DNA of 64,000 nucleotides, from the NCBI GenBank assembly GCA_016342285.1, contig JAEINQ010000030.1, positions 4,490-68,489 of the forward strand, given 5' to 3'. Every line of letters starts with the position of its first letter. The stretch's first letter is position 1. The notes under the pieces are model-generated. The model was not told where the DNA came from. It worked only from the letters and a program-made list of their open reading frames with translations, and did no database searches. Below are positions 8,177 to 22,798 of the stretch, piece after piece. Both the position numbers and the translations under genes were made by a program. Origin of the DNA: Desulfobacterales bacterium. Lineage in GTDB: Bacteria; Desulfobacterota; Desulfobacteria; Desulfobacterales; JAEINQ01.

Positions 8177-9053
8177 GGGAGACCTCCGATCGGCAATCCG
8201 CGTCCGGCACCATGGACCGGATGCGCTGCACCATTTCATCAAAAATGCCACGCGTTTCAGGAGTTGCATCGGCAACGATGCGGCCATCGGCATAGGCCTC
8301 GGCGATGCGCCGATCATAAGGGATTTCCGCAATGATGGGCAGATCCCGGTCCTTGCAGACCTTGTAGACATCCGGTGAGCCGATGCCGGCCCGATTCACC
8401 ACCACGGCCATGGGTTTTCCCAGCGGCGCAAACGCCTGGTGGGCCAGGGCCAGATCAAAGACCCCGAACGGGGTGGGTTCGGTAACCAACACGATGGCGT
8501 CGGCATCCATGACAGCAGCAACCGCCGGGCAACTGACCCCCGGCGGGGCATCAATAATCACATCGCAATCCCGCCCGTCAATCATTTGGGCCAGGCGCTG
8601 TTTGACCTGCCGCATGAGGGGCGGGCTCATGGCCTCACCAACCCTCAAGCGCCCCATGAGAAAATCGACCGATCCCACCGTCCCCCAGGAAATCTCCCCC
8701 AGTTCCCGGCTGCCGGCAGAAAGCGCCCCCTCGGGACAAACAGCAATGCAACCGCCGCAGCCATGGCACATTTCCGTAAATGTCAGAATCACGTCTCCCA
8801 GCACACTGATGGCCTTGAACTGGCAAATCTCAGTGCATTTGCGGCACTGGTTGCACAAGCTTTCGTCGGCAACGGGGACCTCCATCAGGGCCGTTTCGTG
8901 ACCGGTAATCTCGGGATTGAGGAAGAGGTGCAGATTCGGCTCCTCCACGTCCAGATCGACGGCGACCAGGGGGGTCGACCAGATCGATGCCAGAGACGCC
9001 GTGACCGTGGTCTTACCGGTCCCTCCTTTTCCGCTGGCGATAGAGATTTTCAT
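8169..9053 (-). CDS. MinD-superfamily P-loop ATPase with inserted ferredoxin domain (paralog)
   Basis: SGKGGTGKT, DLDVEEPN, CNQCRKC/CHGCGGC, DAPPGVSCP. Confidence 0.92.
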   Translation of the reverse strand: MKISIASGKGGTGKTTVTASLASIWSTPLVAVDLDVEEPNLHLFLNPEITGHETALMEVPVADESLCNQCRKCTEICQFKAISVLGDVILTFTEMCHGCGGCIAVCPEGALSAGSRELGEISWGTVGSVDFLMGRLRVGEAMSPPLMRQVKQRLAQMIDGRDCDVIIDAPPGVSCPAVAAVMDADAIVLVTEPTPFGVFDLALAHQAFAPLGKPMAVVVNRAGIGSPDVYKVCKDRDLPIIAEIPYDRRIAEAYADGRIVADATPETRGIFDEMVQRIRSMVPDADCRSEVSHG

Positions 9054-9418
9054 CGCCAGTGCCCCGGCCGGTTGGGCTCCGCGGCCACGGTCACATCACC
9101 GGCATTGTACTTGTCCAGGGCCTCACGAACCGTCAAATTTTCCATATTCTGGCTCACACTGATTTTGGCGGCCGACAAGGCCTGAAAGGCTTTAGGTCCC
9201 ACAAAGCCGGTCAGCACCACGGAGGCGCCGGAATTGGCGACAATCTCCGCTGCCTGAATACCCGCCCCCTGGCTCATGACCTGGGTCGAACCATTGTCAA
9301 GAAATTCAAAGGCAAGGGTTTTCGGATCCACGACGAGAAATCCCGCCGCACGGCCAAACCGCGGATCGACCCGGGCGTCGAGGCTCGGACCTTCACAACT
9401 CACTGCTATTTTTTCCAT
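9050..9418 (-). CDS. Orange protein (ORP)-like NifB/NifX-family protein
   Basis: IAVSCEGPSLDARVDPRFGRAAGFLVVD...GAGIQAA...TGFVGPKAFQAL closely matches Desulfovibrio orange protein as I recall it. Confidence 0.85.
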   Translation of the reverse strand: MEKIAVSCEGPSLDARVDPRFGRAAGFLVVDPKTLAFEFLDNGSTQVMSQGAGIQAAEIVANSGASVVLTGFVGPKAFQALSAAKISVSQNMENLTVREALDKYNAGDVTVAAEPNRPGHWR

Positions 9419-9476
9419 ATCGGGCTCCTTGGATTGGGGTGGCGTCAAAGCCAGCACTGACAGTGGACGCCCCCGT

Positions 9477-9524
9477 TACGAGCATATGCTCGTAGAAAAT
9501 AGGCGTCACCACTCTCCCTGTCAA
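9477..9524 (-). promoter_or_regulatory. Promoter with perfect 18-bp palindromic operator TACGAGCATATGCTCGTA
   Basis: TTGACA on the minus strand (9524-9519), 17-nt spacer, TATTTT; palindrome at 9477-9494. Confidence 0.7.
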
Positions 9525-9757
9525 GGCTATTTTTGAGTTCATACCCACTAAAAACTTGCCGCGCACCCCCATTAATTTACAACATATCGTTATTACGGAA
9601 TTTTTTGGTTTTCATACGCTGGAAAGAAATCAGGTCCCATAAAAAAGGGCCATGTTTTGACCCGGCGTAAGATAAATCCCTAAGAAAATGGAATGCACCC
9701 ATATATACCCCCGTGGCGCTTATTGTGGAATCGTCGATTCTTTGCCCATGTTCAATA

Positions 9758-9895
9758 TTGATAGCCCCGTAAAAAGTCGAAAACCGTCCTTTTTTCGTCT
9801 TTCCCGCGAAGGCGGGAATCCAGTCATTTCAAATGGTTCTGGATGCCTGCCTTCGCAGGCATGACGGGATCTCGGACTTTTTACGAACGCATCAA
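9758..9895. mobile_element. MITE-like element (same TIR family as 7122) carrying a REP-like double hairpin
   Basis: Ends TTGATAGCCCCGTAAAAAGTC and GACTTTTTACGAACGCATCAA, with TA on both sides. Inner hairpins TTCCCGCGAAGGCGGGAATCC and GGATGCCTGCCTTCGCAGGCATGAC. Confidence 0.8.
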
Positions 9896-9989
9896 TATTG
9901 CCCTTTCCGATTGCACAGCCTCATGTTGGATGTTAAGACGGCAAAAGCCATTCCCATGGGGCGAATGGACGCTGGCATGAAAAGAAACG

Positions 9990-10058
9990 GAACCACGAAT
10001 GGACACCAATGCACACCAATGAAAAATATTCGTGTTTATTGGTGTCCATTCGTGGTTC
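9990..10058. repeat. ACCAC/GTGGT-type palindrome with perfect 21-bp arms
   Basis: GAACCACGAATGGACACCAAT ... ATTGGTGTCCATTCGTGGTTC. Confidence 0.9.
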
Positions 10059-10105
10059 AAAATAGAAAGCGTTAACCCCAAAAAAGGGGCAATAAGGATT
10101 AAATT

Positions 10106-10480
10106 TTGAACTCAATGGATCAGGTCTTAACGAAAATGGATTTCGAGTTTTTTGGCTCCGGAGAGCATGGCATGAGTATCGAAGGCATGCGCAAAGCGCT
10201 GGGAAACGATCACGTTGTCTTTTTAGACGTTCGCTCTGACAAGGAGATCGAATACCTGTCTTTCCCTTTTGCACTTCACATTCCATTAAACAAACTGCCT
10301 GCACGCCTGGGAGAATTGCCAAAGGACAAACTCATTGTCGCCTTCTGCTCATCGGTTTTCCGCGGGGCCATTGCCTATACCTACCTTCGGGCCAACGGTT
10401 TTGATGAGGTTAAAGGGCTAACCGCGTCTTTTGAAGAGATGGTCATGGCATTCAAGCCGGGTCCGCTGGCTAAGCTATAG
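10106..10480 (+). CDS. Rhodanese-like domain protein
   Basis: FLDVRS, HIPL, active-site loop CSSVFRG. Confidence 0.85.
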   Translation: MNSMDQVLTKMDFEFFGSGEHGMSIEGMRKALGNDHVVFLDVRSDKEIEYLSFPFALHIPLNKLPARLGELPKDKLIVAFCSSVFRGAIAYTYLRANGFDEVKGLTASFEEMVMAFKPGPLAKL

Positions 10481-10616
10481 ATAATCATGCATAAGTTGTT
10501 TTTTTCACCATGTAGGTCATGTAGCACATGAAGGATTCCGATAATATCGGCATATTGTCTATTGTATGCGATTTATGCGCTTCATGGTAAATGGCAACTT
10601 TTTGCGAATCCATCAA
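10478..10616. mobile_element. Degenerate MITE-like element (TIR family of 7122/9758) carrying an ACCATG/CATGGT palindrome
   Basis: Right end CAACTTTTTGCGAATCCATCAA; degenerate left end TAGATAATCATGCATAAGTTG; inner arms at 10507-10588. Confidence 0.55.
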
Positions 10617-10696
10617 AATCTAACGCTCCAATCCGCGCCGCTGCCGGGACAACCGAAACAGCACAGCAAATTTTCTCACAATCCCGGACATATCAT

Positions 10697-11446
10697 ATGG
10701 ACGCCATTACCCTGATCATCAGTCTCCTCTCCTTCGGTCTGAGTTTCATCTTTGCTCTCGGCGGCGTGGGTTCGGCCGTGGTTCTCATTCCAACCCTGTC
10801 CTGGCTGGGCGTACCCTTCAACCTGGCCCGCCCGACGGGGCTCTTTGTCAATTGCGTAAGCATGCTGGGCGCCACCTATTCCAACATCAGGGAAAAACGC
10901 CTGGATGTCCGCCTGGGGCTTCCCATCATCGTCTCATCCATCCTTCTGGCGCCGGTGGGAGCCTGGGTGGGCCACCTCATCCCGACCCGATTCCTGCTTC
11001 TGGCCTTTATCGCCTTCCTGTGTTTTTCCGGCTCCATGATGCTCTTTTTCAAAAGCTCGAAATATGCGGATCAGTATCGCAAAGACCGGCCGGTGGCCGG
11101 CCCGCTGCTGGTGGGGGTCGTAGCGGGCTTCATTTCCGGCCTGCTGGGGGTTGGCGGCGGGGGCGTCATCTCGCCGCTCATGATCCTGCAGGGTTTCAAC
11201 CCCAAGAAAGTGGCCACGGTCACGGCCTTTTCCGTCCCCTTCTCTTCATTTTCCGCGTTTATTGCATACGCTGCCATGGGCTCGGTTTCAGGCAAAATTC
11301 TCATCTTTGCCGGATTGGCGGCGTGGGGCGGCGGATACCTGGGGACCCGGGTGATGCAAAAAAAAATGCGCCCCCAAACCGTCAAACGGATGTTGGGCGG
11401 CGTTTTGCTTCTGATCGCAATAAAGCTGGCCTGGCCATTGATGTAA
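10697..11446 (+). CDS. Sulfite exporter TauE/SafE-family membrane protein
   Basis: GGVGSAVVLIP and GLLGVGGGGVISP repeats; about 8 TM segments. Confidence 0.9.
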   Translation: MDAITLIISLLSFGLSFIFALGGVGSAVVLIPTLSWLGVPFNLARPTGLFVNCVSMLGATYSNIREKRLDVRLGLPIIVSSILLAPVGAWVGHLIPTRFLLLAFIAFLCFSGSMMLFFKSSKYADQYRKDRPVAGPLLVGVVAGFISGLLGVGGGGVISPLMILQGFNPKKVATVTAFSVPFSSFSAFIAYAAMGSVSGKILIFAGLAAWGGGYLGTRVMQKKMRPQTVKRMLGGVLLLIAIKLAWPLM

Positions 11447-11571
11447 TCATCAGCCTGGTCATCGCGGGCTAAAAGACGACTTCGGTTTTCCTGGGACGGC
11501 TCATGGAATTCATAACGATCCTGAACAGTCGAATCGTTCCATAAATACTAAACGTTACAAGGAGCATCACC

Positions 11572-12378
11572 GTGAATTTTGACACCGTAAAACTGGCCTA
11601 TTTCTCTCCCACCGGCACCACCCGAAAAATCCTCAATGGAATTGCCGAGGGCTTTGGGGCCGAAAACGTCCGACAAATCGACTTGACATTGCCCCAGATG
11701 GATACACTGGTGTCAAATGAAGTCCGGGATGATTTGGTGGTTTTAGGCGTTCCGGTTTACGAAGGCAGGGTCTCCAGGACGGCCATTGCCAGACTGAAAC
11801 GGCTCAAGGCCGATCATACCCCGGCAGTCATTGTCGTGGTGTATGGCAACAGGGACTTTGAAGATGCGTTGATTGAACTCAACGATCTGGCCCGGGAATC
11901 GGGCTTTCTGCCCGTGGGGGCAGGGGCCTTTATCGGGGAGCATTCCTTTGCCAACGAAAACCGGCCCATGGCCAACGGCCGGCCCGATGCCGAGGATATC
12001 GCGGCGGCGAAAGCCTTTGGATCGAAGATCCGCGCCAAAATGAACGACCTGGTTTCGATTGATGAAATGTCCTTGATCGAACCGCCCGGGAACCGGCCCT
12101 ACATCGACCGCGACCGAAGCGCAATGGAAGACAAGGCCGCCTCGACCATGGATGAAAAGTGTACCCTCTGCGGCGAATGCGCCTCCCTTTGCCCCGTGGG
12201 CGCCATCACCATCGAGGATACGGTGAAGACGGACAACATGGCCTGTATTTTGTGCAATGCCTGCGTCAAACACTGCCCGGAGGGGGCCCGGGTGGTGGAC
12301 GATCCCATGATCAACAAGATCGTCAACTGGGTAAGCAAAAACTTTCAGGCTCGAAGGGAACCCGAAACATTTATTTAA
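11572..12378 (+). CDS. Flavodoxin-ferredoxin fusion (EFR1-type 4Fe-4S protein)
   Basis: YFSPTGTT, VYGNRDFEDAL, CTLCGECASLCP, CILCNACVKHCP. Confidence 0.9.
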   Translation: MNFDTVKLAYFSPTGTTRKILNGIAEGFGAENVRQIDLTLPQMDTLVSNEVRDDLVVLGVPVYEGRVSRTAIARLKRLKADHTPAVIVVVYGNRDFEDALIELNDLARESGFLPVGAGAFIGEHSFANENRPMANGRPDAEDIAAAKAFGSKIRAKMNDLVSIDEMSLIEPPGNRPYIDRDRSAMEDKAASTMDEKCTLCGECASLCPVGAITIEDTVKTDNMACILCNACVKHCPEGARVVDDPMINKIVNWVSKNFQARREPETFI

Positions 12379-12387
12379 AGAATCGAT

Positions 12388-12588
12388 ATGAATGACACCC
12401 TTGAAAACCTTTCACCGCTGGGATGGAACTCTCATTTTCAGACACAATGGGACGATGATGGCAGGATCGAGGCCGCTTTTCCGGAAATTGAGGCGTTTTC
12501 CGCTGACGAAACCAAGTGCAAACAGGTCGGAATTTGTGCGGCCTTGCAAACCCGGTTACGAAGACAGGGCGATAGATGCGGCATATAG
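12388..12588 (+). pseudogene. rsgA: Internally deleted rsgA remnant
   Basis: LSPLGWNSHFQ (long-form RsgA N-terminus) joined directly to WDDDGRIEAAFPEIEAF (the segment preceding the RsgA zinc finger). The GTPase core is absent. Confidence 0.6.
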
Positions 12589-12641
12589 GACTTGCCCCAT
12601 CTCCGTATCATGTCGAAATCCCGGGATTTTCTTGATAGCCG

Positions 12642-13217
12642 CTACCAGGCCTCGGTAAATATCTCGAAAAAACCAATGGGCCGGACGCAGGCAGGGCATT
12701 TTTCAGGGGCATCTGCCCCCTTATGGATATAGCCACAGTTGTTGCAGCGCCAAACCCGTTCTTCATCTCTTTTGAATACCCGACCGGTTTCAAGGTTGTC
12801 TGCAAGGGCCAAAAACGTTTTTTCATGCTGCGCTTCCGCCACTGAGATGGCATCCCAAAAATCAGCGGCCCGGTTAAACCCTTCCTCGCGGCCCATTTTT
12901 GCAAATCCAGGATATAAGTCGGTATGGACGTGTTTTTCCAGATCGGCCGCAGCGATTAGGTTCTCGTAGGTGGATTTCACCACACCGGTTAGAAACCGGG
13001 CAGTGATTTCTAAATCCCCCCCGTTAAAGAACTTGAAAAACCGCAAAGCGTGTTCCAATTCCTGGTCCGAGACCTCTTTAAATATGTTGGAAATCTGGAT
13101 AAAGCCGTCTTCTTTCGCTTTGTTGGAGAAAAAGATATACCGCGTTGTTGCCTGTGATTCGAAGGCATAGGAAACAAGTAGGTTCTTTGCCGTTTGGCTT
13201 TCTCTGAATTTTCCCAC
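12642..13217 (-). CDS. rbr: Rubrerythrin
   Basis: ESQATTRY, QELEHA, EAQHEK; C-terminal WRCNNCGY...CPAC. Confidence 0.95.
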   Translation of the reverse strand: MGKFRESQTAKNLLVSYAFESQATTRYIFFSNKAKEDGFIQISNIFKEVSDQELEHALRFFKFFNGGDLEITARFLTGVVKSTYENLIAAADLEKHVHTDLYPGFAKMGREEGFNRAADFWDAISVAEAQHEKTFLALADNLETGRVFKRDEERVWRCNNCGYIHKGADAPEKCPACVRPIGFFEIFTEAW

Positions 13218-13276
13218 TCTGGTACCCCCCTCTCTATACGGATATACTGCTACCTAAATTGAGCTCAACTCAGGTT

Positions 13277-13381
13277 CTAGTGGCCGTCCTCAATGATCTC
13301 GATGGCGTCGGCACCGCACTCAGCTGCGGCACGGCGGCAGATTTCCTTGTATTGGTCTGGTATTTTCTCATACTTGACCAA
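13277..13381 (-). pseudogene. C-terminal half of a small ferredoxin, 5'-truncated
   Basis: Manual translation VKYEKIPDQYKEICRRAAAECGADAIEIIEDGH*; in-frame TGA just upstream; no N-terminal CxxCxxC half. Confidence 0.6.
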
Positions 13382-13417
13382 TGTTCAAAATCCATATGAT
13401 TCCAGAACATTAGTGAA

Positions 13418-13621
13418 TGGCAAACAGTCCGCAGTCCCTCCGCTTGGCCACCTTGCCGATGGTTATTCGCGACATTCCTCATGTAGTGCCGAGTTCCGCC
13501 CCCTCGGTTCATGGTTGCGCTCGTCTATTCTTCTGGAGTATCATGAAATCCTATCCCGAATGGTCTCTGATCACTGCTGGCCTGTACCTGACGCTGTTAC
13601 GAATACCGTTGGAATCCTTGA
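13418..13621. repeat. 204-bp non-coding direct repeat, copy 1
   Basis: First 65 nt identical to 15272-15336; the remainder aligns with substitutions and two 1-nt indels. Confidence 0.95.
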
Positions 13622-13686
13622 CAATTCAAAAACGCCATTGATTCAAACAAAATAAAGCCACGTTTTGATGCGGAGAGAAGAACGTT

Positions 13687-15105
13687 ATGGTAACGACTCT
13701 AACAGATCAGATATTCGAAAATATCGTAGAGACAATACATGAACCCCTTTTGGTTCTGGATTCAGATCTGAAGGTTATCATAGCAAACCGAAGTTTCATT
13801 AATTCATTCAAGGTAACACGGGAAAAAACTTTAGGCAATTTTATCTATGACCTGGGCAATAAACAGTGGGATATCCCCAAGCTGCGGGAACTGCTGGAAA
13901 CCATCCTTCCCCAACAGACCAGCTTTGACAACTATGAGGTTGAACACGATTTTGCCACCATCGGCAAACGCGTCATGCTGTTGAATGCCCGCCAGATTGA
14001 ACGAGGGATGGACAAGGAACGGATCATTCTTTTGGCCATTGAGGACATCACCAAGCGCAAGGAGATAGAAGCCGGTCTGGAAAAGACCCGAAAAGAACTG
14101 GCGATCATTAAAAAAACCGCGGATGAAGCCCATGAATTCGCTGAGAGTATCATCAACACGGTGAGCGAATCCTTAATTTCCTTGGACCAGGACCTCAGGG
14201 TGGTCACCGTCAGCCGTTCATTCTATGACTTGTTCAAGGTAAAACCTGAAGAGACCGTGGGGCAGCTTATTTATGACCTGGGCAATAAACAGTGGGATAT
14301 CCCCAAGCTGCGGGAATTGCTGGAAACCATCCTTCCCGAAAAGACCGCCTTTGACAACTATGAGGTTGAACACGATTTTGCCGCCATCGGCAGGCGCGTC
14401 ATGCTGTTGAATGCCCGCCAGATTGAGCAAACGTGGGGCAAGGAACGGATCATCCTGCTGGCCATAGAGGACATTACCGAGCGCAAGCAGGCGGATCAGG
14501 CACTGCAAGATAGCGAAGCAAAATTCCGGAATCTATTTCAAAATCATTCCGCCGCCAAACTAATAATTGACCCCGATACTGGAAATATTGTTGAAGCCAA
14601 TAGATCGGCTGAAATATTTTATGGGTGGTCGGTGGAGCAACTCAAAGAAATGCGAATTCAGGACATCAACACGTTATCGAACGAACAGGTGAAAGCGGAG
14701 ATGGAAAAGGCCAGACTTCTGGAACGTACTTATTTCGAATTTCGCCACCGGTTGTCCGATGGATCCTTTAAGGAAGTGGGTGTATACAGCTGCAAAGTTG
14801 ACATCAAGAGAAAGGCTCTGCTCCATTCCATCATTCATGATATTAGCAAGCGCAAGCGGACAGAAGAACAAAAGGACAGGTTAGTTTCGGACCTTCAAAA
14901 GGCACTATCAGAGGTTAAAACGTTGCGGGGTTTTCTTCCCATTTGCTCAAATTGCAAAAAAATCCGTGATGATAAAGGCTATTGGAATCAGATTGAATCC
15001 TACATTCGAGATCGCTCTGACGCTGAATTCAGTCACGGCATTTGTCCTGAATGCGCGAAAAAATTGTACCCTGATATGAACCTGTATGAAGAAGATGCCA
15101 AGTAA
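13687..15105 (+). CDS. Triple-PAS protein with C-terminal Cys/His (LPICxxCKKIRD...SHGICPEC) domain
   Basis: Two near-identical PAS domains (LGNKQWDIPKLRELLE) offset by 426 nt; no kinase or other recognised output domain. Confidence 0.85.
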   Translation: MVTTLTDQIFENIVETIHEPLLVLDSDLKVIIANRSFINSFKVTREKTLGNFIYDLGNKQWDIPKLRELLETILPQQTSFDNYEVEHDFATIGKRVMLLNARQIERGMDKERIILLAIEDITKRKEIEAGLEKTRKELAIIKKTADEAHEFAESIINTVSESLISLDQDLRVVTVSRSFYDLFKVKPEETVGQLIYDLGNKQWDIPKLRELLETILPEKTAFDNYEVEHDFAAIGRRVMLLNARQIEQTWGKERIILLAIEDITERKQADQALQDSEAKFRNLFQNHSAAKLIIDPDTGNIVEANRSAEIFYGWSVEQLKEMRIQDINTLSNEQVKAEMEKARLLERTYFEFRHRLSDGSFKEVGVYSCKVDIKRKALLHSIIHDISKRKRTEEQKDRLVSDLQKALSEVKTLRGFLPICSNCKKIRDDKGYWNQIESYIRDRSDAEFSHGICPECAKKLYPDMNLYEEDAK

Positions 15106-15271
15106 GGATTTTCGATGCATATTTAGATAATTTGGAGCTTAAACAATAATTATCCTATGCGCAACCACCGTTGACCCCGGACAGATCAAACATACCAATC
15201 CAATCCTTGACTGTTCAATACGGTTATTTTCGACAGTCATTCCTCAGGCATAATCTTTTCAAATGCGGGAC

Positions 15272-15475
15272 TGGCAAACAGTCCGCAGTCCCTCCGCTTG
15301 GCCACCTTGCCGATGGTTATTCGCGACATTCCTCATCTAGTACCGAATTCTGACCCTCGGTTAATGGTTGTGCTCGTCTATCCTTCTGGAGTATCCTGAA
15401 ATATCCTCTCGAACTGGTCTCTGTTCGCCCTTGGTCTCGACATGACGCTGTTACGAATACCACTGGAATCCTTGA
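15272..15475. repeat. 204-bp non-coding direct repeat, copy 2
   Basis: See copy 1 at 13418-13621. Confidence 0.95.
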
Positions 15476-15545
15476 ACCTTGCAGCACTCAAGGATAATGC
15501 AAATAATCATGACTCGAAAAGATTGAGAAGGTAGGGGCAAAATCC

Positions 15546-17945
15546 ATGTCTGGAAAACCTACGTATGAAGAATTAGAACAACGGGTTCGGGAATTAGAAC
15601 AAGCAGAATCAGAGCGAAAAGAGGTTGAGGATACGCTGCGGGAGAGCGAGAGTAGATTGCGAGAAGCCCAGCGATTGGCTCACATGGGAAACTGGTCTTG
15701 GGACGTCAATTCAGGTAAAGTGGAATGGTCCAACGAAGTGTTCAAAATTTTCCGACTTGACCCGAAAGTGTTCACACCTCAGATTGATTCAATTCTGGAT
15801 TTGTCGCCCTGGCCTGAGGATCACCAACGCGACAAGGAACTCATCCAGAAAGCAGTCGAAAGTCGTGAAGTCGGTTCCTATGAACAGAGGTTCCTCCGGC
15901 CCGATGGCAGTACCGGATACTACTTCTCAAGCTTTCAGGGGATCTACGATGACAACGGAAAACTCACTGCAATAAACGGAGTGGTGCAAGACATCACCGA
16001 ACGCAAGCAAGCGGAGGAAGAAATTAGGTCAGCTACGTCATTTATCGATAGGGTTGTCGATATGAGCCCTTTCGCCATGTGGATTTCCGATCGAGAAGGA
16101 ACGGTCATAAGGACAAACAGCTCTCTGCGCGAAACATTAAATATGTCGGATGATAAGATTGTGGGCCAATACAATGTACTCAAGGATGAAAATCTGGAGA
16201 CACAGGGTGTTATGCCCATGGTGATGGCTGTTTTCGAGAATCACGAGCCCGCGAATTTCAGTATTCCATGGAAAGCATCAACGGCTGGTGATGTCAATTT
16301 TGATGGCGCACGAGATCTGTACATCGATGTGTCAATATTTCCGATAGTTAGTGCAGAGGGTGAACTTACGAATGCAGTATGTCAGTGGGTGGACATCACC
16401 GAACACAAGAAAAACGAAGAATCCCTCCGTGAGAGTCACGAGAAATTTAAATCAATCGTCGACAACATTGGAATAGGGGTAGCATTGATCAGCCCGGCTA
16501 TGGAAATACTCGAAATGAATCATCAAATGCGCGAGTGGTTTACGGAACATGATCTGGACAAAAGACCAATTTGTTACCGTACTTTTAACAATCCACCACG
16601 TGAAGAAATCTGTGAATACTGCCCGACTTGCAAGACGCTTAAAGACGGCAAAGTTCACGAAGACACAACTGCCAGGCCACAGGCAGACAAAACGCGGAAT
16701 TATCGCATTGTTTCTTCACCTCTAATCAATCCACAAGGAGAAGTGACAGCAGCCATCGAAATGGTTGAGGATATTACCGAGCGTCTGAACCTGCAAGCAC
16801 AGCTTATACAGGCGCAAAAAATGGAGTCCGTGGGCCTATTGGCTGGCGGTATTGCACACGACTACAACAATATCTCCAGTGTCATCATCGGTTATTCGGA
16901 GTTGGCTCTGGAAAAGGTGGACCAGAATGATCCTCTACATGACGATCTCATAGCGATTCTTACGGCTGCGAATCGTTCGACGAACATTACCCGGCAATTA
17001 CTGGCTTTTGCTCGCCAACAAACCATTGCACCCAAGGTGCTCGATCTAAACGGTACTATAGAAACGATGCTCAAAATGCTCCGGCGGCTGATAGGCGAGG
17101 ACATCAATCTTGCCTGGCGACCTGGAGTGGAGGTGTGGCCGGTCAAAATTGATCCCTCCCAGGTCGATCAAATTCTGGCCAACCTCTGCGTGAACGCCCG
17201 AGACGCTATTGCGGGGGTAGGTAAAATTACCATCGAAACCGGAAATGTCAGCTTCGACGAGAACTACTGCGCTGATCATGCCGGGTTTGTTCCCGGTGAG
17301 TATGTATTGTTAGCGGTAAGTGACGATGGTAGCGGAATCGCGCCGGAAACCCTGGACAAGATTTTCGAACCGTTTTTCACTACAAAGGAATTCGGCCATG
17401 GGACAGGGCTGGGGCTGGCCACCGTTTATGGCATTGTCAAGCAGAACAACGGCTTTATCAACATATACAGTGAGCCGGATGAAGGGACAACAATCAAAAT
17501 ATATTTGTCACGGCATTCAGGGGATATCGAAGCCCTTCATAAAAGTACCTTAGAAAACCCAATAAGTCGAGGCGAAACAGTATTGCTGGTTGAAGATGAT
17601 CGTTCCATCATGGAACTCGGGACAAGAATGCTCAACGATCTGGGTTATTCAGTGTTGTCCGCAACTATTCCGGGTGAGGCCATTCGCTTGGCCAAAGAGC
17701 ATGCTGGCGAAATTAACCTTCTGGTAACGGATGTGGTTTTGCCCGAAATGAATGGCCGCGAACTCTCTGAGCAACTGAAAATCCCTTGTCCTAATCTTAA
17801 AATACTTTTCATGTCCGGCTATACGGCCAACGTCATTGCCCATCGGGGAGTGCTGGAAGATGGCGTTTGTTTCATGCCGAAACCGTTTTCCAAAAAAGAT
17901 CTGGCTGCAAAGGTTAGAGAGGCCTTGGATAATGACAACGGCTGA
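15546..17945 (+). CDS. Cytoplasmic PAS hybrid sensor histidine kinase (PASx3-HisKA-HATPase-REC)
   Basis: [33 protein letters not shown]. Confidence 0.95.
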
Positions 17946-18065
17946 TTGAGGACAATTATCCGAACGTTGAGTATTCACGGATCGGAATTTTTAAGGATAC
18001 AGGAGGATAAAGGGGGTGTTCTTGAGTTCAGCCTGAAAGACGTCGTGATCGATACTCGTAGGAGG

Positions 18066-18105
18066 GGGCTTGAATTAGGGACGCACTTCAGGAATATTCA
18101 AGCCC
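18066..18105. terminator. Hairpin between convergent genes (possible terminator)
   Basis: GGGCTTGAAT ... ATTCAAGCCC. Confidence 0.4.
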
Positions 18106-18114
18106 GGCTGGCCG

Positions 18115-18849
18115 TCAGCCCCCGAGAAACGTCATGGAGCCGGCGGCATGAACCTTATCGTCGCTGAAAATTTTGAACCGGCAGCCATCATCCGCGTTCA
18201 GGCCGCCGGCCCGAACCGCCCGGCATCGCGCCCCAATCTCCTTTTGAAACTGGATCTTCAATTCACCAATCCTCCCATTTGCTGCAAAGGCGCGGGAGGC
18301 CATGGTTTCCAGGTAATCGAAATAGAGCGAATTGTTCACATGGCCCAGGGGATCGAAATCGCTGGATCTTGTGGTGATCTCGATATGGGCTTCCGGTTCG
18401 AACTCGGCCTCTGGCCGCCAGGCATCCAGGTCCAGGTCGAGCACGGTCTCGTCTTCGACTGAGTAGGCTTCGATCAGGTCTCCAGGTACGCGAACAATCC
18501 GCTTTCGTTTCATATCGAAATAAAGCCAGATGCTGGCGGCGACGGCCAGTCGCTGATCCCCCGAGGAAACGACAAAATCCCGAAACGCCTTGAATCCCTT
18601 GGCACCTCTGCTCCAGGTAGTCACGGTGACCGTCTCTCCGTACTCCGGATAGCGGATAATTTCGGCGGCAATTTTATTGAGGATCCACACGGTGCCGTCA
18701 TTGACAAGGGTGCGGCTTCCGATCCCGACCCGCTCACTGTGCATCACCGCCGCTTCCTGAAAATACCGGAACAGTGACACCAGCTTCAGGCCAAATCGTG
18801 AATCGACGTCAAAATAGTCAAGCGGTCTTTCCATGCGAAATTTCATCAT
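18115..18849 (-). CDS. Acyl-ACP thioesterase (FatA/FatB-like)
   Basis: YFQEAA, DFDPLGHVNNSLY; double hotdog fold. Confidence 0.9.
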   Translation of the reverse strand: MMKFRMERPLDYFDVDSRFGLKLVSLFRYFQEAAVMHSERVGIGSRTLVNDGTVWILNKIAAEIIRYPEYGETVTVTTWSRGAKGFKAFRDFVVSSGDQRLAVAASIWLYFDMKRKRIVRVPGDLIEAYSVEDETVLDLDLDAWRPEAEFEPEAHIEITTRSSDFDPLGHVNNSLYFDYLETMASRAFAANGRIGELKIQFQKEIGARCRAVRAGGLNADDGCRFKIFSDDKVHAAGSMTFLGG

Positions 18850-18857
18850 CGCCCCCT

Positions 18858-19376
18858 TTATGAACCGCTTTCGGGACAACGAATATATTGCCCCCCCAAG
18901 GACGCATAAGCCGCCTGGCCAAAGGCCATAGCCTGGCGGTGGGCTTCGGTGGCTTTCTTCACCGGCTCAGCAGGCCGGCCGGCGACAATGGTACCGGCGT
19001 CCACGGTGGTACCGTCGCGCAGGTGGGATTGTTCGGCAACAATGGCATCGGCACCGATGACCACCCGGCTACCCACCAGCGACTGCATGCCCACCAGGAC
19101 ATTGTCGCCGATTTCGGCATCGTGAACCATGGCCTGGTGGCCCACGATCACCCCTTTACCGATCCGGGTCGCCTGGGCCGCATGGATCACCACGTTGTCT
19201 TCGATGATGCTACCGTCGCCGATGGCGATCAATCCGAAATCGCCCCGAATCACCGCCCCGAATCCGATGTAACAGCCCCTTCCGATCTGCACGTCGCCGA
19301 TGACTGAAGCGTTGGGGGCAATCCAGCACCCCTCTCCGATGACCGGCCGCTTTCCGTTGATTTCGTATAGACTCAT
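18858..19376 (-). CDS. Gamma-carbonic anhydrase family protein (PaaY/CaiE/YrdA-like)
   Basis: Hexapeptide repeats; IRGD; three His ligands (VIH, VGH, MVH). Confidence 0.9.
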   Translation of the reverse strand: MSLYEINGKRPVIGEGCWIAPNASVIGDVQIGRGCYIGFGAVIRGDFGLIAIGDGSIIEDNVVIHAAQATRIGKGVIVGHQAMVHDAEIGDNVLVGMQSLVGSRVVIGADAIVAEQSHLRDGTTVDAGTIVAGRPAEPVKKATEAHRQAMAFGQAAYASLGGQYIRCPESGS

Positions 19377-19640
19377 GAAGCGGGGTCCTTTCTGTTCTGA
19401 AATGGGAAAAAGGTCTTTTATCATAAAGAGACGCCGTTGACAAAGAAACGGCTGTATTGCCCATGAAATGACAATCCAGACCACCGCCATCGGTTTGCCA
19501 TTTTCAATTTCTCAAGAATCGTGTATGATGGCCGATAACAAATAAAGACAAAGGGGCCGGACGACAATCGTCGCCCGGACAAATACCCGCAGCGCCATTA
19601 AAGGCGCTGCTTTTGTTTTTTTATCCCCGAGGAGAAAAGG

Positions 19641-19892
19641 ATGTACTTCGAAGCCACGTTCAAACCGTCGGACCCTACAGAATATATCGCGGAAGCCGAG
19701 CCCCTGGTCGGCCAGAGGATATCCATTCAGCAAGGATGGATACTGGAAGACGGCCCCTACCAGGGAGAGCTGTGCTACTACATTCCCAACACCACCATCG
19801 GCACCATACCGACCAGCCACCTGGACAACATTGAGCCGATCTCCTACGCCAAATGGCGCGAAATCCACAAGCACCTGGGATTCAGCAACTAA
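19641..19892 (+). CDS. Hypothetical protein (83 aa)
   Basis: AGGAG RBS and host-like codon usage. Confidence 0.7.
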   Translation: MYFEATFKPSDPTEYIAEAEPLVGQRISIQQGWILEDGPYQGELCYYIPNTTIGTIPTSHLDNIEPISYAKWREIHKHLGFSN

Positions 19893-20312
19893 ACGGGCAA
19901 AACGCACATTATATCTTTGAACACGGATCGCCCGAGTTTCACCCCACTGCAGACCGCCTCTTCCGGGGACGGGTTGATCTGCGTCCATGCCTGCTGATTC
20001 CAGGTACGGGCAATTCCCCAACTTCAAAGGGCTTTTTGGTTCCCAAAACCGGGCCATTGCGTTAACATACCAGAAATGCCTCTTTCACGTGACATGACCG
20101 GAAGGTAAGGAATCAACGCCACCGCATCATCGTTTTGGGAGAAAAACATGCCCATGGGGCAGATCAAAGCGGTCCTAGCTCGCCTGATTTTTTGCCTCAC
20201 TGTCCCCATTCACATAGCCAATGGGGGATCTCTCCGACCCTAACCGACAGTGGCCACAGGTGCCGGTCCTTTTTGCCAGAGGCAACGTTACCATCAACCA
20301 CAGGAGGTGGAC

Positions 20313-21407
20313 ATGTCCAGGGGACTCAATATCGCCATCAACACCGGCGGCGGCGATGCGCCGGGCCTCAACGCCGTCATCGAGGCGGTGGTCATGGCGG
20401 CCCACAACCGAAACTGGGATGTTTACGGCATCAAGAGCGGCTACACAGGCCTGATCGATACTGACGAGATCGTCCGCCTGACCCCGGACCGGGTCCGTCG
20501 CATCTCCAGCACCGGCGGCACCATTCTCGGCACCACCAACAAGGGCAATCCCTTTGAAATGCCGGTGACCAACGCTGCCGGCGAAGTGGAGATCCGTGAC
20601 GTTTCCGACCGCGTGGTGGAAAATTTCAAGCGTCTGCGGTTCGACTGCCTGGTCGCCGTTGGCGGCGACGGCTCCCTGGAAATCGCTTACCGTTTTTTCC
20701 AGAAAGGAATCCCGGTGATCGGCGTGCCCAAAACCATCGACAACGACATGGGCGGCACGGTCATCACCTTCGGCTTTGACACGGCGGTCAGCACGGCCAC
20801 CGAGGCCATCGACCGGATCCACTCCACGGCCCGCAGCCACGAACGGGTGATCGTGGTGGAGGTTATGGGCCGCCACGCCGGCTGGATCGCCCTGAACTCC
20901 GGCATTTCCGGTGCGGCCCACGTCATCTTGATCCCCGAGATCCCCTTTGATATTGAAAAAGTCTGCGACCATATTATGGCCGAAGAGCTTCACGGGGAGC
21001 GCTATGCAGTGGTGGTGACGGCCGAAGGGGCCGTACCGGCAGGCGGCGGCCAGATCGACCGGGGCGCGGGCGAGGTCGGCCGCCAGGACGTGCTGCTGGG
21101 CGGTGTCGGACAGTACGTGGCCGAGGAAATCGCCAAGCGAACCGGAAAAGACGCCCGATCCCTGGTGCTGGGGCACCTCCAGCGCGGGGGATCGCCCACG
21201 ACCTTCGACCGCCTGCTGGCCCTTCGCTTCGGGGCTGCCGCGGTACGTCTCATCGAAAAAGGCAAGTTCGGCTCCATGGTGGGCCTGGACCCGCCCAAAA
21301 TCAAGGCGGTGCCCCTGGAGCAGGTCATCGGCAGCATTCGAAACGTCCCCCTAGACAGCGACACCATCGCCACCGCCCGGGACATCGGCATCTGTTTCGG
21401 CGACTGA
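20313..21407 (+). CDS. pfkA: 6-phosphofructokinase (PfkA family, group III-like)
   Basis: GGGDAPGLN, GGDGS, PKTIDND, VEVMGR; AGGAGG RBS. Confidence 0.93.
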   Translation: MSRGLNIAINTGGGDAPGLNAVIEAVVMAAHNRNWDVYGIKSGYTGLIDTDEIVRLTPDRVRRISSTGGTILGTTNKGNPFEMPVTNAAGEVEIRDVSDRVVENFKRLRFDCLVAVGGDGSLEIAYRFFQKGIPVIGVPKTIDNDMGGTVITFGFDTAVSTATEAIDRIHSTARSHERVIVVEVMGRHAGWIALNSGISGAAHVILIPEIPFDIEKVCDHIMAEELHGERYAVVVTAEGAVPAGGGQIDRGAGEVGRQDVLLGGVGQYVAEEIAKRTGKDARSLVLGHLQRGGSPTTFDRLLALRFGAAAVRLIEKGKFGSMVGLDPPKIKAVPLEQVIGSIRNVPLDSDTIATARDIGICFGD

Positions 21408-21410
21408 GCC

Positions 21411-21633
21411 GGGTACGGGGCATTGGGTTGTCCCGGAAGGGGCCGGGTTATCGCCCCCCATATCAGTGTGGGGTGCCTAAAGTGAACTAAAGTGACTAAA
21501 GTTGAGGAGTCGCTACGCTCCACCGGTTTTTAATAATAGGAAGAATTCTTTAACTTTAGTCACTGGCAATGTGTCTCGGCATAGCCAACAGACACTGACC
21601 ACACCCACATCATGTGGATTCCGACTGCGTATT
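21411..21633 (+). repeat. Intergenic repeat family B (GAATCC...GTGGATTCC), copy
   Basis: Shares CCCCATATCAGTGTGG, CTAAAGTGA arrays, GTGTCTCGG.ATAGCCAA and GTGGATTCC with 55518; shares GTCGCTACGCTCC with 52862. Confidence 0.8.
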
Positions 21634-21652
21634 GAAAAGGAGAAACCGTCCC

Positions 21653-22798
21653 ATGGCAGAACCGAACTGGCGGGTTCACAACCCCTCCGGGAAACGCCGC
21701 GTCATCATCACCAAGGAGCTGCCCGGAGGCCGATGGCTGGACATTCTGACCACGGCCGACTGCCGGGTGGAGATCTGCACCACCACCGATGTGCTCACCG
21801 TTGAAGCAATTCGGACGGCCATGGGCGACCGGTGCCACGGGGCCATCGGGCAGTTGACGGAACCCTGGGGAGAAGAACTCTTTTCAGCCCTTGCGGCCGC
21901 CGGAGGAAAAGCCTACAGCAACTATGCCGTGGGATTCAACAACATCGACCTTGATGCCGCCACCCGCTGCGGCATCCCCGTGGGCAACACCCCCGGTGTA
22001 CTCACCGAAACCACGGCGGAAATGGCCGTGGCCCTGACCTTTGCCGCAGCCCGGCGCGTCTGCGAATCCGAACGGTTCTTAAGGGCGGGGAAATACAAGG
22101 GGTGGCTCCCCACCCTTTTTCAGGGAGAACTGCTGTGGCGAAAAACCCTGGGGATTATCGGCGCCGGACGCATCGGTGCGGCCTACGCCCGCATGATGGT
22201 GGAAGGCCACAAAATGGATCTTGTCTACTACGACCTCTACCCCAACCCGGACCTCGAATCGTACATGGCCGATTACAGCACCTTTCTGACCGCCCGGGGA
22301 GAAGCCCCGGTGACCTGCAAGCGAACCGAAACCGTAGAAGAACTGATGGCTGCCGCCGACTGCATCAGCCTGCACACGGTGCTCGATCCGGCCACCCGCC
22401 ATCTGATCAATGCCCAGCGACTGGCCCTGATGAAAAAAACCGCCATCCTGGTAAACACGGCCCGGGGACCGATCATCGACGAGGCAGCCCTGGTGGCCCA
22501 TTGCCGTACCCATCCCGACTTCAAGACAGCCCTGGACGTTTTCGAAGACGAACCGGCTCTGGCACCGGGCCTGGCCGACCTGGACAACGCCGTGATCGTG
22601 CCCCACATCGCCTCGGCCACGGCATGGACCCGTCAAGGCATGGCGATCCTGGCCGCCACCAATGTGGCCGCCATTTTATCGGGCCATCCGGTCTGGCCGG
22701 AAGCCGACATCGCACCCTTTCTTGCACCCGACCCGCCCGCCGCGGCACCGAGCATTCTGAATGCCAAAGAGTTGGGCTTGTCACACTTGGATTTGTAA
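21653..22798 (+). CDS. D-glycerate dehydrogenase / hydroxypyruvate reductase, plant HPR1-like
   Basis: GNTPGVLTETTAE, GAGRIGAAYARMMVEG, NTARG, LDVFEDEP, PHIASA. Confidence 0.92.
   Translation: MAEPNWRVHNPSGKRRVIITKELPGGRWLDILTTADCRVEICTTTDVLTVEAIRTAMGDRCHGAIGQLTEPWGEELFSALAAAGGKAYSNYAVGFNNIDLDAATRCGIPVGNTPGVLTETTAEMAVALTFAAARRVCESERFLRAGKYKGWLPTLFQGELLWRKTLGIIGAGRIGAAYARMMVEGHKMDLVYYDLYPNPDLESYMADYSTFLTARGEAPVTCKRTETVEELMAAADCISLHTVLDPATRHLINAQRLALMKKTAILVNTARGPIIDEAALVAHCRTHPDFKTALDVFEDEPALAPGLADLDNAVIVPHIASATAWTRQGMAILAATNVAAILSGHPVWPEADIAPFLAPDPPAAAPSILNAKELGLSHLDL

Follow-up and report, generated by a model that had tools for sequence, protein, structure and literature searches.

What is the 204-nucleotide (nt) non-coding repeat that stands ahead of each of two different PAS genes in a Desulfobacterales genome, and does it mark the end of a mobile unit, a leader RNA or a portable promoter? 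The question was raised by an earlier note on a stretch of 64,000 nt (the window; positions 4490-68489 of contig C83 of the source genome, G000; other G numbers denote compared genomes). The direct repeat described there, at 13418-13621 and 15272-15475, is confirmed at 87% identity over 204 nt, with an identical run of 65 nt that starts at TGGCAAAC (alignment columns 39-103) and, in the remainder, the substitutions and non-triplet indels that had been reported (two 1-nt indels). Both copies end in CCTTGA, with TTGACA formed in copy 1, and stop 65 nt and 70 nt short of the ATG codons at 13687 and 15546; they do lie in an AT-richer block, the guanine-plus-cytosine (GC) content of 13000-18000 being 44-49% and that of the flanks 53-63%. 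We suggest, with a probability of about one in two, that gene cassettes associated with a recombinase have this repeat, here called the head, at one end and a member of a second repeat family, the tail, at the other, and that the head also supplies a promoter. The best fit among the proposals of the earlier note is thus that of an undescribed mobile unit, stacking in tandem and carrying signalling genes, of which the repeat is one end; it is favoured by the dispersal of the repeat, the tail, the GC content, the junction between tail and head, and the recombinase.

The two window copies are not a simple local duplication. A profile search (nhmmer, E < 1e-5; profile built from the best copies) placed the head at 16 dispersed positions in G000, 12 of them near-full (170 or more of the 224 profile positions covered) and four partial. 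The head matches no known insertion sequence (IS) end or transposase fragment. With a covariance model (R1) of the 147-nt core, heads were found in 13 of 151 genomes of the order, G000 included, with ten copies in G125 and one or two in each remaining head-bearing genome; a BLAST search against 60 genomes of the order, as had been proposed, returned only two weak matches, and the wider spread needed the covariance model to be seen. Pattern scans gave 11 matches in a species-genome collection, four of which the model confirmed, and 10 in metagenome contigs, four of which fitted the model at E up to 0.1; all model-confirmed matches with a stated order or family are of Desulfobacterales type, and one more locus came from searches around G011 and G141. 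Nine of the G000 cores group as a separate clade in a tree, in which the copies on C98 and C16 pair with G125a and G125c. An internal tandem duplication of 75 nt in the core was not significant (z 1.6).

Judged by the family alignment, the full head is longer than the 204 nt first reported, about 250-330 nt. The left boundary had been called sharp, and it is sharp between the two window copies, because a member of the tail family (15142-15264) precedes copy 2; in the wider family, however, homology continues 25-70 nt further upstream and passes through a GATTCCGGAATATT motif. On the 3' side, homology runs in most copies ~35-50 nt past CCTTGA, through an inverted repeat (TCCTTGA, ~12 nt, TCAAGGA) and then ATGCAAG. 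Head copy 1 (13418-13621, + strand) is made up of the 5' half from TGGCAAAC and the conserved core, with block A, GGTTGCGC, at 13513, GAGTATCATGAAAT at 13536, TTACGAATACC at 13597 and AATCCTTGA at 13613. Its 5' extension (13375-13417, + strand) reads TTGACC, a decayed GATTCCGGAATATT palindrome motif, 8 nt and TGGCAAAC; it includes a promoter-like match, TTGACC-15-TATGAT, and is homologous to a stretch beside the recombinase gene in G125. The same 5' extension is present in eight of the 16 G000 heads as a GATTCYGGAATATT motif with the 10-bp palindrome ATTCCGGAAT, ending 8 nt before TGGCAAAC. The 3' part has been lost from copy 1, and the hairpin 3' arm and ATGCAAG motif are missing from the variant sequence that follows it (13622-13660, + strand); this variant also follows the C11 copy and is found ~240 nt from a recombinase gene in G034 (L148). 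Head copy 2 (15272-15512, + strand) extends 15272-15475 by the 3' arm TCAAGGAT at 15488 and ATGCAA, and its true end is near 15512.

The tail family (~190-250 nt, non-coding) has eight full and two partial copies in G000 and several in G125. Five of the 10 G000 tails share strand and contig with a head that lies 1.7-6.1 kilobases (kb) upstream of them, where we estimate that ~0.07 such pairs would be expected by chance; in contig numbering these are C83 (head 17899, tail 19571), C104 (head 7248, tail 13527, and again head 16734, tail 19721), C79 (head 61, tail 3454) and C36 (head 43966, tail 46754). In G125, a tail lies 0.7-4.7 kb downstream of six of the 10 heads, and one tail (G125c) abuts a head as in the window. 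The tail-family member of the window (15142-15271, + strand; profile match from ~15082 to 15295) closes the first unit and abuts head copy 2. It lies between gene 1 and head 2, and the window thus holds two stacked units, which share a low-GC block at 13250-18000 (not assigned to a strand); unit 1 would be 13418-15271 and unit 2 would start at 15272. Both cargo genes have a low GC content and are on the + strand: gene 1 (13687-15105) encodes a PAS-only protein of 472 amino acids (aa), and gene 2 (15546-17945) a PAS-PAS-PAS histidine kinase with a receiver domain of 799 aa. Four tail-only copies (C43, C79, C128 and C76) have their right ends at a motif of the TCATTCC type, which in C76 reads GTTCC; a TGCCAAAC-like word follows the right end in one of them only (C128), the left edge of the unit being TGGCAAAC.

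Base composition changes along the same boundaries. The overall GC content of G000 is 56.4%, and the 10th percentile of its 2-kb windows is 50.8%. Of the 11 copies that are followed by 240 nt of sequence or more, 10 have 36-51% GC downstream of the head (up to 2 kb); the exception, at 53%, is the copy with an IS after it. The two kb upstream of heads have 47-59%, mostly 53-57%. Heads thus mark a step from ~56% GC down to 36-49%. The GC content falls at the head and recovers within ~200 nt past the tail on C104 (twice), C79, C36 and C20 and in the window, and it drops at the head in two of the three G125 loci that were profiled. GC steps could also be an assembly artefact, produced by chimeric joins at repeats common to organisms of the metagenome; G000 consists of 166 contigs with an estimated contamination of 8.5%, and many of its heads are near contig ends. 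However, islands with DNA of normal GC content on both sides occur within one contig on C83, on C104 (twice) and on C36, and the same architecture is present in G125, a separate assembly. Taken together, these two observations argue against chimeric joins, and we regard the artefact as barely plausible.

The heads are strictly oriented. In all 10 G000 copies with an identifiable next gene, the head points at that gene, and in eight of these PAS, kinase or receiver genes or operons come next; the other two are followed by a gene for a ferredoxin-type protein and then an AMP-ligase gene, and by a glycosyltransferase gene. Two further G000 copies run into a contig end and precede an inserted IS, respectively. 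Signalling domains are encoded by 10 of the 21 next genes in other genomes, and three of the 21 are orthologous amino-acid permease genes. The genes upstream of heads are unrelated to one another, and the cargo too is unrelated from unit to unit, comprising PAS proteins, a solute-binding protein with a kinase, a CHAT protease, an HSDR_N protein, a glycosyltransferase and an amino-acid permease. A DDE transposase gene follows only two of the 33 heads examined (C15 and G073b), as a later insertion. At C15, the IS with its DDE_Tnp_1_6 transposase gene (L031 2808-4439) is on the opposite strand, 89 nt past the head, and has probably inserted between the head and its cargo.

Comparison of individual loci places breaks in homology near TGGCAA. 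Several of the junctions given here and above were read from alignments by eye. The loci G125d and C20 have 450 nt of left flank in common, at 86% identity, up to head position 22, past which they differ in head subtype and in cargo. The heads of C16 and G125c are 92% identical exactly from TGGCAAAC to just past ATGCAAG, and their flanks and cargo are unrelated. Identity between G000 and G125 heads reaches 88-92%, whereas matching genes of the window have only 64-77% at the DNA level. The head core and the amino-acid permease gene together are 88-94% identical between two families of the order. A PocR-PAS gene of G125, preceded by a full head, has an 85% identical counterpart in G000, on C74, where only the last ~45 nt of a head remain, again at a GC step. 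In genus g12, another multi-copy repeat ends at TGGCAAGATA and sequences then diverge (L068 1317-1529; L123, L125-L127; G011 and G147).

A candidate for the enzyme was found between units. At G125:C80, the interval from a tail to a head holds the gene of a tyrosine recombinase, which is read away from the head, on the opposite strand, and a truncated copy occupies the same position at G125:C112. The order tail, oppositely read recombinase gene, head is thus present at two of the 10 G125 heads, at one of them with a truncated gene. Head copies adjacent to a recombinase, which the earlier note had proposed to look for, are accordingly on record at these two loci, and G000 has recombinase fragments, one directly upstream of head C20 and one directly after the cargo of that unit; related DNA is also present behind tail 1 of C104. 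The recombinase is a member of PF00589 and, among NCBIfam models, scores best with a XerA-like one, at 115 bits, which is below the cut-off. The recombinase family is present in 33 of the 151 genomes, often in multiple copies, broken, or at contig ends. In five of 16 recombinase loci (five genomes), TGGCAA[AG] is found at a constant distance (index 225-236) on the divergent side, preceded in four of the five by a GATATT-like word, and many of the 16 have an outward TTGACA box near the start of the recombinase gene. The N-terminal coding part of this family contains a run of 7-10 A, at which the frame breaks in G125:C80 and in the one-contig genome G048 (L143); such a break could be due to slippage, phase variation or decay.

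These features can be assembled into a mechanism. A unit would consist of a head, one to four low-GC cargo genes, mostly for sensors or signalling, and a tail, and would occur singly or in tandem. In the full form, the stretch from a tail to the next head would hold the divergently read gene of a small Xer-like tyrosine recombinase, and most copies, including all in G000, would have lost this gene or kept fragments of it. The recombinase is predicted to join and cut units near TGGCAA(A/G) at the left edge of the head, the TGGCAA region being the likeliest crossover point; copies without the gene would be served by an enzyme supplied in trans, and the head promoter would let the cargo be read wherever a unit lands. 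Whether this amounts to an undescribed cassette system of the Desulfobacterales is a more tentative proposal, which we hold at somewhat less than even odds. Such a system would be self-expressed, with a head and a tail of ~250 nt, and its units, exchanged by the small Xer-like recombinase near a TGGCAA core, would stack, move between families and draw on a shared sensory and signalling pool; it may follow an integron-like logic built from different parts. A literature search, which covered listings and the starts of abstracts, returned nothing on such an element, a result that does not establish it as unpublished.

The same junctions can be read the other way round, with the mobile piece formed by the tail, the recombinase gene, the 5' extension and the 5' half of the head. 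This piece would resemble an IS of ~1.4 kb when full and, when without its gene, a miniature inverted-repeat transposable element (MITE) of ~210-430 nt (~15163-15373 in the window); it would insert beside a conserved promoter core, and the cargo would merely be trapped between insertions. A tail directly adjoins a head in the window (15142-15272) and at G125c, a recombinase gene lies between tail and head at G125d and G125i, and GCGCAACC, where the tail starts, and GGTTGCGC, in block A of the head, bracket the piece as an inverted pair. Nested inverted repeats also surround the recombinase gene, other genomes conserve only the core from block A onward, and in G011 block A is replaced by a different repeat. 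(This is the g12 repeat, which has taken the place of block A of the head core upstream of an amino-acid permease gene.) On the other hand, most heads have no tail upstream and most tails no full head downstream, the low GC content lies from head to tail and not from tail to head, the outer inverted pair is short, and the piece has no excess of DNA folding (z -0.57 and +0.06). We therefore think this arrangement rather improbable.

Several observations weigh against our reading of heads and tails as cassette ends. There is no intact recombinase copy in G000, and co-occurrence is weak, with the recombinase in five of the 13 head-bearing genomes and 28 of the 138 others. The recombinase gene of G125:C80 (L134 969-1830) is frameshifted at its poly-A run and is bracketed by nested inverted repeats of its own (L134 885-897/1899-1911 and 922-932/1817-1827), so that it may be a separate small element lodged in the inter-unit region; the outer inverted pair holds ATTCC and GGAAT halves, which together form a 10-bp palindrome in gene-less copies. 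Eight of the 16 G000 heads have the same 5' extension without a tail or a recombinase gene upstream, for which a simple integration model has no explanation other than decay. In the window, a search for tails gave none behind cargo gene 2. The fragmentation and contamination of the G000 assembly given above also count here, in that chimeric joins may be a partial cause of the GC switches. An empty and a filled site could not be compared, the nearest genomes examined being from other families with flanking genes that are not syntenic: in G125 the rubrerythrin gene does not share a contig with the gene to the right of the island, and the latter gene has weak or no matches in G039, G073, G141 and G036. 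Lastly, no recombination product, circle or excision was observed in four DNA runs, which hardly cover the heads and yielded short contigs on PAS repeats only.

The promoter function that we assign to the head was also suggested in the earlier note, as a portable promoter, and this is compatible with the family alignment because promoter-like boxes hold fixed positions in it. A pair at the start of the core, TTGCRC-18-TATCYT, has a spacer that varies in sequence but not in length and is present in at least 13 copies, and a second pair, TTGAAA-15-GATNAT, spans the 3' inverted repeat in at least 12. Measured against sigma-70 promoters, whose -35 and -10 hexamers have a spacer of 16-18 nt, one pair has a 15-nt spacer and the other a non-consensus -35 box; a promoter scan found sites no more frequently than in shuffles, and for sigma-54 no GG-N10-GC was seen by eye at any conserved block. 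From these boxes we infer that the head supplies the promoter of its cargo. Across the genome, TTGCRC-N18-TATCNT has 10 matches at this spacing versus 0-5 at other spacings. We rejected a wider regulon that uses this pattern, there being no excess beyond approximately the number of heads that carry the boxes (the positions were not cross-checked).

In a non-mobile alternative, the head could be the promoter or operator, and the tail the terminator or 3' region, of a regulon bound by one set of proteins, spread by duplication, gene conversion and homologous recombination together with fast-evolving sensor genes. The fixed positions of the boxes would be expected of such a regulon, as would conservation in rigidly spaced blocks with few indels and the shortest distances of 35-56 nt between head end and start codon, which fit a promoter at the 3' end. 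Some of the downstream genes are paralogues with related 5' ends (those of copy 2, C150 and C104a), and the identical first 65 nt of the window copies resemble gene conversion. It is difficult to see, however, why a regulon would place unrelated cargo between the same head and tail, with GC steps exactly at these two elements, or why heads should be more alike between families than matching genes are. The box pattern is found nowhere else in the genome, as far as the 10 matches approximate the number of heads carrying it, and a recombinase gene lies between tail and head. The chance that a non-mobile regulon is the explanation is in our view real but small.

The remaining proposal of the earlier note, a novel structured leader RNA, did not survive the tests. 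A riboswitch-like or attenuator RNA, transcribed from TGGCAAAC or block A and controlling the sensor gene, would agree with the strict orientation of the head and its closeness to the start codon, and with its conservation across families. Moreover, TCAAGGAT can pair with the upstream ATCCTTGA or with a downstream TTGAG, which is followed by a T-run in some copies; one compensatory change is seen at the TCAAGGAT pairing in copy C20, and a -10-like AATATT lies 8 nt before TGGCAAAC. Against this, and in line with the earlier note, which had recognised no riboswitch, Rfam 15 gave no matches at E up to 1 in 12500-18500 of the window and at six other loci, and the family gave no consensus fold and no excess of covariation or folding energy. 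For 13 full copies, RNAalifold returned -4.56 kcal/mol and not one compensatory pair, and for 31 cores it yielded no consensus structure on the + or the - strand; a scan of column pairs in the alignment found no antiparallel stack. On the model structure, covariation was 0.171 versus 0.178 in shuffles (347 of 500 shuffles at least as high), and 74.8% of pairing cells were filled by pairs versus 74.4% in shuffles. Folding energies of 31 copies had a mean z of -0.40 on the + strand and -0.37 on the - strand, with two of the 31 below -2, and global or partial folds of single copies had z values of -1.2, -2.25 and -0.34. Read by eye, the hairpin arms show about nine one-sided changes that disrupt a pair and two that retain it as G-U, and the 3' arm or its spacing is lost in three of the 12 G000 copies. 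The GGCAA/TTGCC stem that had been drawn around a CAGTCC doublet is present in the two window copies and in C60, but only there, and is not kept across the family. A leader RNA is accordingly very unlikely.

The claim that the element is non-coding was confirmed. Substitutions are spread over the three codon phases at 214/225/237 (37 close pairs), the best reading frame is stop-free in five of 29 copies, and conservation lacks a period of 3. Minus-strand open reading frames (ORFs) over some copies are in differing frames and have no Pfam match. We also considered, and rejected, an upstream ORF starting from the conserved ATGCAAG (MQ..LSF), which varies in length from 4 to 40 aa, is without usable ribosome-binding spacing and is lost in some copies.

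How do such cassettes compare with known systems? Their logic is closest to that of the gene cassettes of sedentary chromosomal integrons, which are likewise short units of one to a few genes with an odd base composition, co-oriented and able to stack in tandem; conserved non-coding repeats separate those units as well, and a divergent tyrosine recombinase gene and a promoter into the cassettes would also be common to both. The recombinase here is not IntI, however, scoring 42 bits on the integron-integrase model, whose cut-off is 265. No IntI (TIGR02249) exceeded the cut-off in G000, the best being a partial match of 108 bits at C63:27419-27643; in G125, two genes are above the integron-integrase cut-off (C139:144574-145509 and C64:825-1757), on contigs without heads. 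In an attC site, inverse 7-bp core sites close an imperfect hairpin of about 57-141 nt. The repeats here are instead 190-330 nt long and of two unlike pieces, head and tail, and the units are dispersed on many contigs, each with its own promoter-like head, and do not form a single array. An inverse pair, GCGCAAC/GTTGCGC, is present ~210 nt apart in the window. We rejected an attC-like hairpin of the tail and the 5' half of the head, since the DNA fold of 15155-15380 was no better than in shuffles (z -0.57 on the + strand, +0.06 on the - strand).

Other systems share single features. The pdif modules and IMEX elements carry small cargo, presumably mobilised by tyrosine recombinases of the Xer type, and the recombinase here scores best against Xer-type models. 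Those modules are bounded by 28-bp dif-like sites and depend on the host XerC/D, whereas the present units have long, asymmetric ends and a small recombinase gene of their own in the space between one unit and the next. Tycheposons and cargo-only satellites of marine cyanobacteria resemble the present units as tyrosine-recombinase elements with tandem cargo in islands, many units being without a recombinase. In contrast to the integration of tycheposons at tRNA genes, with partial tRNA repeats, the ends here are not tRNA-like, and no tRNA or transfer-messenger RNA gene was found in 9000-22000 of the window. Correia elements and other promoter-carrying MITEs are also dispersed non-coding repeats upstream of genes with outward promoter-like boxes, but the head has an unlike partner several kb downstream, coincides with GC boundaries and recurs, conserved, in different families of the order. 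A search of the head for terminal inverted repeats was negative, with no inverted pair in the C104a copy and only short internal or distant pairs in the window.

If the cassette reading is true, large genomes of the sulfate-reducer type would gain and reshuffle PAS, kinase and receiver genes as ready-to-express cassettes from a pool common to families, and recombinase-driven cassette systems would extend beyond the integron, the dif module and the tRNA-targeting island. The head and the tail would then serve as two annotation markers that delimit horizontally acquired DNA to ~100 nt, and organisms that have few genetic tools would gain, in the head, a candidate for a portable promoter.

Some minor features of these loci were also noted. 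The heads C128 and C98:58761 (L032 and L039) are preceded, over a block from ~280 to 40 nt ahead of them, by the last part of the same small conserved ORF and by the same perfect 14-bp hairpin, which lie upstream of the 5' extension, and C11, C36 and C15 share another upstream block of ~260 nt, by phage-like genes (portal protein and Dam methylase). In the window, a minus-strand ORF of 80 aa without a Pfam match (13270-13512) runs from inside head copy 1 into the GC-rich left side; it may be spurious, or what is left of the 3' end of a host gene that the island interrupted. Within PAS gene 1 there is a tandem duplication (13765-14064 versus 14191-14490, with a period of 426 nt and 82% identity), and two of its PAS domains are therefore recent copies of one another. 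The ~60 aa at the C terminus of its product (14890-15100) are Cys-rich, with a CxxC ... CxxC pattern and no Pfam match, and the corresponding DNA matches many places in G125 at 69-77% identity, often directly before a tail.

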